Shown piece by piece: positions 2,037-4,717 of a stretch of 6,695 nucleotides of DNA. Position numbers and translations under genes: made by a program. This stretch comes from a virus (lineage: Duplodnaviria; Heunggongvirae; Uroviricota; Caudoviricetes). The stretch is from the IMG/VR virus record IMGVR_UViG_648276656_000011; one strand, 5' to 3'. Under the pieces are notes generated by a model. That model was not told the DNA's origin. It was given only the letters and a program-made list of their open reading frames with translations, and made no database searches. Position 1 is the stretch's first letter, and each line of letters starts with the position of its first letter.

Positions 2037-2588
2037 ATGACACAAGACTATGAACTGGTTGTGAAAGGAGTCCGCAATTTTGAGAATAAAGTGGCGGTAA
2101 CTGTAGCCTTACGGGACAAAAAACGCTTTGACGGTGAAATTTTTGACCTGGACATCTCGCTGGACCGTGTTGAAGGTGCCGCGCTGGAGTTTTATGAGGC
2201 AGCAGCCAGAATGAGAATCAGACAGGTATTCCTGGATGTTGCTGCCGGGTTATGTGTAGGGGATGAGCAGTCGCTGGAAAAGCGCCCCATAATTTTAGAG
2301 GCGCAGAATGTGTGGATAACCTACAAAGGAAAGCTACCGGGAAGAATTACTGGTTCTCTGAAGACGCCACCGACGGCATTGCGGTCAGAAAAAGATGATA
2401 TTGAATCGCCCATTGAAAAACTGGAGGGCAGCGTCGCTGATCTGAATAAAAAATTGTCGGTGCTGATCCCTTCTGAAGATGAAAAAAAACGCCGCGATGA
2501 GCAGTTTGCGGCGTTTTACGATTATTGCATTGAAGTTACTCGCAGGAATTTTGTGAAGATTTTTGAGGAGGGTAAATCTCTTCAGTAA
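2037..2588 (+). CDS. ydfR: YdfR-family lysis-cassette protein with a long C-terminal extension (183 aa from ATG 2037)
   Basis: The tracked ORF starts at TTG 2016 inside the holin gene; the ATG at 2037 lies 4 nt after the holin stop and gives MTQDYELVVKGVRNFENKV..., which I recognise as the N-terminus of Qin YdfR (recalled as DUF1327, ~100 aa in K-12). Here the frame stays open to 183 aa. Its antisense frame is Phe-rich junk, supporting plus-strand coding. Confidence 0.65.
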   Translation: MTQDYELVVKGVRNFENKVAVTVALRDKKRFDGEIFDLDISLDRVEGAALEFYEAAARMRIRQVFLDVAAGLCVGDEQSLEKRPIILEAQNVWITYKGKLPGRITGSLKTPPTALRSEKDDIESPIEKLEGSVADLNKKLSVLIPSEDEKKRRDEQFAAFYDYCIEVTRRNFVKIFEEGKSLQ

Positions 2589-2796
2589 GCTTAATGGCGG
2601 ACGCTGCAATTAATTCAGGAAGGTCCGCAAGGTCATCTGTCAGTGGATATGATGAAAAATCGGCGGCAGTTCTGTTAAGAAGCGCTTTAACTAATTCCTT
2701 TTCCTTCTCCGGCAACAAGTTGATTAGAGCTACGACTGCTTGCCTGAGTGCGATTAAATCAGCAAAAGTTTGTTTTGGTAGATTTGTGTAATCCAT
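2536..2796 (-). CDS. Hypothetical small acidic protein (86 aa), convergent with and overlapping the ydfR-like 3' end
   Basis: ATG at plus-strand 2794-2796 is preceded on the minus strand by AGAGGTGA with a 5-nt spacer. Translation MDYTNLPKQTFADLIALRQAVVALINLLPEKEKELVKALLNRTAADFSSYPLTDDLADLPELIAASAIKLTEEIYPPQKSSQNSCE is helix-like and acidic with no signal peptide. The overlapping plus-frame ORF 2594..2791 looks less protein-like. Confidence 0.5.
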   Translation of the reverse strand: MDYTNLPKQTFADLIALRQAVVALINLLPEKEKELVKALLNRTAADFSSYPLTDDLADLPELIAASAIKLTEEIYPPQKSSQNSCE

Positions 2797-2909
2797 AGTC
2801 ACCTCTGTGTTTATCAGATTGACATCCTCCTCCCGCCAGTGCCCATCACTGGTGAGGTAAGATTTAACATATCCGGGGATTTGAAGCCGATAAATCCTGA
2901 TAAATATCC

Positions 2910-3937
<1,028 letters not shown>

Positions 3938-4094: not shown

Positions 4095-4170
4095 TGTGTT
4101 TTTCTTTACAAAAGTAATCCTTGCTATGGTTGGTTAATCATGCGTTAATGGTGTTCTGGTTTGTTACAAA
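4095..4170 (+). promoter_or_regulatory. cspI promoter and cold-box-like 5'UTR start
   Basis: AT-rich 4095-4120, TTGCTA 4121-4126, 17-nt spacer, GTTAATG 4144-4150, then CTGGTTTGTTACAAA. Parallels the cspB upstream region (shared ATGCGTTAATG...GGTTTG). Confidence 0.5.
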
Positions 4171-4300
4171 ATTATCTGAAGCAGTCATTGTTATAATTTT
4201 ATTATTTGTACCTCTTGAGATTTCCTTGTTGGTTTTTCTCTCTGATATTTTTTTTCGGACCATTCTGCCCAAGGGCTAACTTCTTCAAAAGGTAATAATG

Positions 4301-4513
4301 ATGTTTAACAAAATGACTGGTTTAGTGAAATGGTTTAACCCTGAAAAAGGTTTTGGTTTCATCACGCCGAAAGATGGTAGCAAAGATGTGTTTGTGCATT
4401 TCTCAGCTATTCAGAGCAACGATTTCAAAACGTTAACTGAGAATCAGGAAGTCGAATTTGGTATTGAGAACGGACCTAAAGGCCCTGCAGCTGTTCATGT
4501 AGTGGCACTTTGA
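4301..4513 (+). CDS. cspI: Cold-shock protein CspI (70 aa from the second ATG)
   Basis: [70 protein letters not shown] matches CspI from memory. Tandem ATGs at 4298 and 4301; AAGG lies 6 or 9 nt upstream. Confidence 0.9.
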
Positions 4514-4717
4514 GGTAGAAAATATTACAAACCATATTCACTTTAGATGCCCGTGTTGCCATGGTTCTCAGTATAGAACATCATCTTTTGATGTTTCTGA
4601 CAGAAATCCTTTCGGGGCAAAATGTATCTTTTGTAAATCAATGATGATTACATTTGATAATATTTCACAATACTTAAATGTTAGCCATCTGTCGTTAGAT
4701 TTAAGAAAGTGAAAATG

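Follow-up and report, generated by a model that had tools for sequence, protein, structure and literature searches.

The 6,695-nt stretch of DNA analysed here (the window; IMG/VR virus record IMGVR_UViG_648276656_000011, Caudoviricetes) is the late region of a Qin-like lambdoid prophage, with 99.9% identity to CFT073, S88, APEC O1, and many further E. coli genomes. Its lysis cassette carries an open reading frame (ORF) of 86 codons on the minus strand, ORF86, wedged between a ydfR-like gene and the endolysin gene rrrQ. Our analysis indicates that ORF86 is very likely a genuine, conserved protein-coding gene under purifying selection. With modest confidence, we favor the view that it is a protein-coding moron, i.e., a self-contained transcription unit lying backwards in the late (lysis) operon, and that its product is a conflict factor expressed in the lysogen.

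The ORF86 coding sequence spans positions 2536 to 2796 of the minus strand. The minus-strand ORF as a whole (2536–2802) encodes 88 aa from a GTG codon; initiation at the ATG at 2796 yields 86 aa, with the stop codon at 2536. Upstream of this ATG is the Shine-Dalgarno (SD) sequence AGAGGTGA (2799–2806, minus strand), which has a GAGG core and is followed by the 5-nt spacer TGACT. Over 7 nt, its GAGGTGA stretch matches the anti-SD at the 3′ end of 16S rRNA. At its 3′ end, ORF86 shares 53 nt (2536–2588) with a plus-strand ORF extending from 2016/2037 to 2588. The NCBI Prokaryotic Genome Annotation Pipeline (PGAP) already annotates the exact 86-aa coding sequence as a hypothetical protein, designated WP_001306174.1 in CFT073 and WP_001557934.1 in REL606. 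The product is acidic, with an isoelectric point of 4.57 and a net charge of −5.5. A preliminary description of this DNA, made by reading the letters, had given the location, the ATG at 2796, a strong SD, the 5-nt spacer, the 53-nt overlap, and an acidic 86-aa product, and all of these were confirmed.

An AlphaFold2 (AF2) model of ORF86 places helices at residues 8–26, 30–48, and 56–74, with a predicted local distance difference test (pLDDT) score of 70, consistent with a small three-helix cytoplasmic protein. Inspection of the N-terminus, MDYTNLPKQTFADL, revealed neither a hydrophobic leader, as expected of a signal peptide, nor a lipobox Cys. Within the coding sequence, database variants differ by the presence or absence of one EK unit, in frame, at window positions 2695–2712 (codons 29–34, PEKEKE; variants P0001 of 88 aa and P0004 of 84 aa). 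This pattern suggests slippage at a short GAGAAG-type repeat with preservation of the reading frame.

ORF86 matched the phage protein family phrog_2572 over its full length (residues 1–86 on profile positions 1–86, E = 1.2e-53; PHROGs v4), and its Salmonella homologue matched the same family with E = 6.3e-24; ORF86 constitutes the whole of phrog_2572. The statement in the preliminary description that the sequence resembles no nameable family therefore holds only in part, in that ORF86 belongs to a catalogued family and is annotated in RefSeq, but neither entry has an assigned function. A word-indexed search returned solely E. coli copies at 85–99% identity, plus truncated chimeras. An exhaustive HMMER search covering 1.84 billion representatives, together with a profile search, recovered homologues of 89–93 aa with 41–57% identity in Salmonella enterica and in unassigned or metagenomic assemblies, and these retain the length, frame, and SD of ORF86. 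Apart from true relatives, the HMMER output contained just one protein (P0020), eukaryote-like, 975 aa long and with TPR/CHAT repeats; it was matched in eight separate stretches and was dismissed as helical-repeat noise.

Codon alignments among three lineages gave a ratio of non-synonymous to synonymous substitution rates (dN/dS) of 0.23–0.38 in the ORF86 frame, the lowest of all frames, with synonymous sites saturated. Four of the five alternative frames gave values of approximately 0.9–2, and the antisense frame that has third codon positions in common with ORF86 gave 0.35–0.47. Only the ORF86 frame is free of stops; all five alternatives contain stop codons in one or both sequences, and a 65-aa ORF antisense to ORF86 (2594–2791, plus strand) was not retained in Salmonella. 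The SD is equidistant from the start in every lineage while its sequence differs, being GAGGTGA here and TAAGGA plus 6 nt elsewhere. The preliminary description had proposed that a frame not conserved across homologous prophages would speak against the gene; we found that three divergent lineages conserve it. Of the 44 E. coli copies examined, 43 are intact, with nine synonymous and 13 non-synonymous variant sites. ORF86 occurs on at least 1000 contigs and is found in the plaque-forming phages 2H10, PhiR63_1, PhiR12_x, and PhiR5_1. Its protein is fast-evolving.

Comparison with related prophages disclosed that ORF86 lies in a 478-bp extra segment (2381–2858) that is absent from an otherwise collinear "empty-site" E. 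coli prophage of strain FORC_042. In FORC_042 the window-type ydfR allele, of 114 aa, ends just ahead of a 47-nt spacer that is followed by the endolysin gene. Bounding the segment is a 10-nt direct repeat, imperfect and identified by eye, with copies CCACCGACGG at 2368–2377 and CCATCACTGG at 2843–2852. In K-12 Qin, ydfR encodes 103 aa and its stop overlaps the start of rrrQ in an ATGA junction, unlike in the window, and nothing matches window positions ~2245–2899. An insertion relative to Qin, a possibility that the preliminary description proposed to check, is thus supported both by the missing interval in Qin and by the clean 478-bp difference from FORC_042. The GC content of the segment (41.4%) differs modestly from that of the ydfR N-terminal part (48.5%) and rrrQ (51.5%).

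Of 5426 complete E. coli genomes, only 294 carry the segment in full. Alignment of the window with phage PhiR12_2 gave 94–96% identity over the segment, compared with 73% for the flanking holin gene, 55% for the ydfR N-terminal part, and 82% for the endolysin gene, a pattern typical of modules that mosaic phages exchange. The ORF86 unit was located between holin and endolysin genes (with or without DUF1327), after Rz in Salmonella, and after a Q/DUF3927 region.

ORF86 appears to carry its own transcription signals. A candidate sigma-70 promoter on the minus strand (2866–2894) consists of a −35 hexamer TTTATC (2894–2889), a 17-nt spacer, and a −10 hexamer TATGTT (2871–2866); ahead of it is an A/T-rich conserved block, ATATTTATCAGG, which extends to the rrrQ start codon. 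All nine contexts compared have ATATTTATCAGGnTTTATC, a 17-nt spacer of varying sequence, and TATGTT (TATTGT in Salmonella), and they include Salmonella and L093/L096, where no endolysin gene adjoins. We infer that the conserved block is a candidate promoter of ORF86. Some observations weigh against this assignment and, with it, against a self-contained unit: the hexamers match only seven of 12 consensus positions, a consensus scan did not call the block, and the block persists in the empty-site prophage too. The sole minus-strand promoter hit of that scan falls within ORF86.

Transcription from this candidate would start near 2859, which is the right edge of the variable segment, giving a predicted 5′ untranslated region (UTR) of ~63 nt (2797–2859, minus strand). 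The inverted repeat CCAGTG-cccat-CACTGG, to which the preliminary description had drawn attention, is present in this leader at 2836–2852, inside a longer predicted hairpin, but its occurrence is at chance level and it is kept only in E. coli alleles: perfect 6-bp inverted repeats with loops of 3–8 nt number 27 in the window, so that 0.46 would be expected per 113 nt, the leader length. Fold z-scores for the leader were −2.2 and −2.5 in two E. coli alleles, and neither Salmonella nor L093-type leaders conserve the hairpin. The candidate promoter and the ORF86 5′ UTR are bracketed by the arms of a perfect 8-nt inverted repeat, TTTATCAG/CTGATAAA (2897–2904 and 2810–2817), possibly an operator; it occurs in E. 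coli alleles and is likewise absent from the Salmonella and L093-type leaders. No Rfam match was obtained in 2300–3000.

Downstream, an intrinsic terminator is predicted at 2482–2517 on the minus strand, starting 18 nt past the ORF86 stop codon and lying inside the coding sequence of the convergent plus-strand ORF. It combines a perfect 10-bp stem, AAAACGCCGC/GCGGCGTTTT (arms 2517–2508 and 2495–2486), a 12-nt loop, and a run of eight T residues (2489–2482). This hairpin (2486–2495/2508–2517) is the region's strongest inverted repeat, and the window has just one other perfect repeat of 10 bp. It had been overlooked in the earlier reading of the sequence, and it escaped our consensus scan because its 12-nt loop exceeds the 8-nt limit of that scan. 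The stem is kept in Salmonella, and the L093/L094 lineage has changes in both of its arms (CGCCACC/GGTGGCG); a substitution in the L104 E. coli allele gives G·U in the minus-strand RNA and A·C in the plus-strand RNA. Judged by its structure and position, the hairpin with its T run is ORF86's own predicted factor-independent terminator, as befits a moron.

The predicted minus-strand transcript of ~375 nt could alternatively act as an antisense RNA that pairs with the late mRNA between the partner ORF and rrrQ and modulates endolysin expression or mRNA processing, the ORF being incidental; lambda OOP RNA, which acts on cII, would be a parallel. Complementarity would be complete both with the untranslated gap of 321 nt that precedes rrrQ and with the 3′ end of the convergent gene. 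The endolysin gene itself (2910–3443, plus strand), whose start codon adjoins the promoter-like block, has no recognizable SD (window 2859–2912) and no coupling to an upstream stop codon, the preceding stop being 321 nt away. Plaque-forming phages have the same uncoupled rrrQ layout, and translation of the endolysin must therefore begin with no SD to assist it. An incidental ORF does not account for codon-level selection, a conserved SD and start, or the protein identity that is retained despite saturated synonymous sites, and we therefore consider a purely RNA-based function improbable.

The plus-strand ORF that converges on ORF86 is composite. From the ATG at 2037 it encodes a 183-aa product whose N-terminal domain (2037–2372) is a truncated YdfR, matching Pfam DUF1327 with E = 1.3e-40 over residues 8–119 and phrog_2091 over its full length. 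Insertion of the 478-bp segment takes away the ydfR stop codon, and therefore the frame runs on for 68 more codons into a second domain, P67 (2382–2588, ~68 codons), the last 53 nt of which overlap ORF86. This partner domain is homologous to stand-alone late proteins of 67–73 aa in other prophages. In Stx-like E. coli prophages it is a stand-alone 67-aa ORF (P0053, 393 contigs) that starts 4 nt past the holin stop, with ORF86 antisense to it and the endolysin gene next; DUF1327 is entirely absent there. In Salmonella and related assemblies, the start of a 73-aa ORF falls on the stop codon of Rz, and this ORF converges on the homologue of ORF86, both lying between Rz and the small terminase gene. 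A further lineage has the partner as the C-terminus of a 144-aa protein, which occurs either unfused or joined to a full-length YdfR of the K-12 type. On the strength of these arrangements, the conserved partner of ORF86 appears to be the C-terminal "extension", an independent late protein, and not YdfR itself.

The partner frame contains no stops and shows dN/dS values of 0.22–0.40 outside the overlap, from alignments that are poor at such divergence, and its N-terminal heptad (coiled-coil) pattern is retained where the DNA has diverged. The AF2 model of the fusion placed partner helices at residues 123–143 and 147–182 (pLDDT 72–87). Neither ORF86 nor the partner has a membrane segment, and with grand average of hydropathy (GRAVY) values of −0.11 and −0.86 the two ORFs are hydrophilic or amphipathic. 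In-frame fusions of DUF1327 to the partner recur with several different junctions, and the resulting proteins have 170, 183, 243, 259, and 263 aa. PGAP calls the ydfR of this region a C-terminally truncated pseudogene (2037–2372), a call that is probably wrong because of these recurrent fusions; the 183-aa YdfR–partner protein is likely to be real.

These data also bear on the suggestion that the region is a decaying remnant, i.e., recombination junk in a cryptic prophage with ORF86 non-functional. The pseudogene flag, the many truncated or chimeric database copies, and the relaxed constraint within E. coli would fit such decay, but the segment is intact in plaque-forming phages, it is conserved across genera, and the in-frame fusions are maintained at several independent junctions. 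This explanation was already disfavored, and we give it the least credence of those considered here.

Each ORF86 homologue that we found, in three lineages and six genomic contexts, has a convergent partner with a 3′ overlap of 53–59 nt, and ORF86 and the partner, by this arrangement, appear to be inherited as one unit. Such constancy raises the main rival to our reading, in which the two genes form a two-component module: ORF86 made in the lysogen would neutralize P67 or the YdfR–P67 fusion, or would set its level by antisense pairing through the 3′ overlap, acting as an antitoxin-like safety catch or as a control of lysis timing. In addition to the constant overlap, the parallel divergence of partner and ORF86, the constraint on the partner frame (dN/dS, absence of stops, and coiled-coil pattern), and the position of the partner at a lysis-accessory site, directly after holin or Rz with its start abutting the upstream stop, are in line with a module. 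On the other hand, genes that overlap physically and have a terminator embedded in one of them are co-inherited automatically, neither protein matched a toxin or antitoxin family, neither has a membrane segment, and the N-terminal part of the partner and the hairpin also occur where unrelated antisense genes replace ORF86. We thus regard the module as a possible but doubtful explanation.

Replacement of ORF86 was seen in two strains. In O157:H7 NE122, the same N-terminal part of the partner and the same promoter block accompany an unannotated 233-aa antisense ORF in ORF86's place (L092, 1736–2437, minus strand), which lies downstream of that block. This ORF takes the position of window 2536–2858, between a DUF1327–partner fusion and the endolysin gene, and had no match in Pfam, PHROG, PADLOC, or NCBIfam; a plus-strand ORF reads 252 nt antisense through it. 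In strain A34, a 118-aa antisense gene of phrog_1853, a family of no known function (L101, 2087–2443, minus strand), converges on a 259-aa plus-strand protein (phrog_1085) that contains the partner segment. The 118-aa protein was considered as a relative of ORF86, and profile comparison revealed no homology. Because other prophages have unrelated antisense genes at this site, we consider it a variable slot for accessory genes. If it is a general exchange point for accessory genes expressed in lysogens, it would be a cheap place to seek new exclusion, defense, and counter-defense factors.

A bolder proposal joins the slot with the module: an undescribed two-gene prophage module in which lysogen-expressed ORF86 restrains a late coiled-coil effector, setting lysis timing or an abortive/exclusion switch, within a promoter/terminator slot that serves enteric lambdoid phages in general as a hotspot where antisense conflict genes can be exchanged. 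We offer this as speculation, slightly less probable than the module by itself. K-12 YdfR is reported to bind RNase E's N-terminal catalytic domain via its residues 1–72, to co-purify RNA, and perhaps to bind RNA (2026; PMC13232886). Region 1–72 is retained in the fusion protein of the window, and the late effector of such a module might thus be linked to RNase E or RNA.

Neither ORF86 nor its partner gave a match above threshold in Pfam, NCBIfam, or PADLOC, where only sub-threshold noise appeared (ABATE, DUF1823, and one DrmA fragment). The DUF1823 label carried by PhiR12 phage records was rejected, as it scored 13.2 bits against a Pfam gathering cut-off of 25 bits, with a best E of 0.024 among 10 family members. 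A fold search with the ORF86 model gave no informative match, and a literature search found no paper naming the protein accession or the phrog identifiers. The Gifsy defense gene gipd474 encodes an unrelated ATPase. A type II toxin–antitoxin pair was discounted, since the two genes are convergent and not co-transcribed and neither protein has a toxin or antitoxin domain in Pfam, NCBIfam, or PADLOC. The 3′ overlap would suit a type I system of the TxpA/RatA type, yet both ORFs are hydrophilic or amphipathic and under coding constraint. A Bor-like lipoprotein moron was set aside for want of a signal peptide or a lipobox Cys at the N-terminus.

When the family profile was compared with PDB sequences, the only hits were to the anti-CRISPR protein AcrIIC4 (7xvo, 8hns; E = 0.54), co-linear over 62 of 93 positions. 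The E value is not significant, and fold searching did not support the match; AcrIIC4 identity was therefore considered unsupported and the hit kept as a lead. It would cast ORF86 as an anti-CRISPR-like or anti-defense inhibitor, a small helical AcrIIC4-related decoy that blocks a host immune effector. The similar size (AcrIIC4 has 88 aa), a common LP...K.L...FSS motif, and the acidic, small, prophage-borne nature of ORF86 agree with this idea. To our knowledge, the hosts of ORF86 do not have the system that AcrIIC4 targets. We judge this identity very unlikely, more so than an antisense RNA.

Under the moron reading that we favor, host sigma-70 RNA polymerase would start near 2859 at TTTATC-N17-TATGTT, and the transcript, a ~63-nt leader plus 86 codons, would stop at the hairpin 2517–2482 inside the convergent late gene. 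With its own promoter and terminator, ORF86 would be expressed in the lysogen, independently of Q. After induction, it would be overrun and silenced by the Q-antiterminated late transcription that converges on it; ORF86 is thus probably made in the lysogen and turned off by the late operon. The product, a small cytoplasmic protein of three helices, acidic (pI ~4.6) and bearing neither a catalytic nor a DNA-binding signature, would most likely act by binding another protein. Its role may be in phage–phage or phage–host conflict, such as superinfection exclusion, defense, or inhibition of a host or phage protein. We lean towards such a stand-alone conflict role and away from a core lysis component.

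The window reads, in order, cspF, cspB, ynfU, essQ (holin), the ydfR-like gene, ORF86 on the minus strand, rrrQ (endolysin), rzpQ/rzoQ, cspI, and so on. The Rfam cspA thermoregulator (RF01766) was matched twice over its full length on the plus strand, at 688–1127 and 4143–4559 (160 and 105 bits), spanning the leaders and coding regions of cspB and cspI, respectively; the prophage therefore has several cold-shock genes with intact RNA thermosensors. Within rzpQ, at 3591–3887 on the plus strand, an embedded +1-frame ORF with a lipoprotein-like leader corresponds to the o-spanin gene rzoQ, which is annotated in K-12 and absent from the CFT073 RefSeq annotation.

Roughly 5% of the complete E. coli genomes carry ORF86, among them CFT073, APEC O1, S88, and B strains of the REL606/BL21 lineage, and it occurs in Stx-like prophages and inducible phages as well, yet it has remained nameless. 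What was a bare "hypothetical protein" can now be described as a defined unit, with a selected gene, a candidate promoter, a covarying predicted terminator, and an obligate convergent partner. The corrected annotation of its neighbor, in which the "YdfR pseudogene" is likely joined in frame to a small late protein distinct from it, bears on the reported YdfR–RNase E interaction.

Among known systems, AcrIIC4 resembles ORF86 in its similar length, helical character, prophage origin, and weak co-linear sequence. Compared with K-12 Qin YdfR, to which ORF86 is unrelated, the plus-strand neighbor keeps the DUF1327 N-terminal domain but no longer has its C-terminus or stop, being fused to the partner, and the ORF86–partner pair also occurs without DUF1327. 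Gene pairs that overlap at their 3′ ends under antisense RNA control include lambda cII/OOP and the B. subtilis prophage type I toxin–antitoxin systems TxpA/RatA and BsrG/SR4. The present pair shares with all of these the convergent transcription, here with a 3′ overlap of 53–59 nt, and the placement of a terminator within the opposite gene. Unlike TxpA/RatA and BsrG/SR4, both partners here are apparently soluble proteins, with no hydrophobic toxin peptide.

The closest parallel is with morons, a concept of Juhala and Hendrix exemplified by lambda bor, a lipoprotein gene beside the Rz genes that is read in the direction opposite to the late operon. The resemblance to the opposite-strand layout of bor, first raised in the preliminary description, was strengthened by the insertion, the candidate promoter, and the predicted intrinsic terminator. 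Like morons of this type, ORF86 is small, has an apparent promoter and terminator of its own, lies between late genes, is present or absent in collinear phages, has a lower GC content than its neighbors, and is antisense to the lysis cassette. Unlike Bor, its product has no signal peptide or lipobox, and unlike bor, its 3′ end and predicted terminator lie inside a co-moving convergent late gene, so that the mobile unit would consist of two genes.

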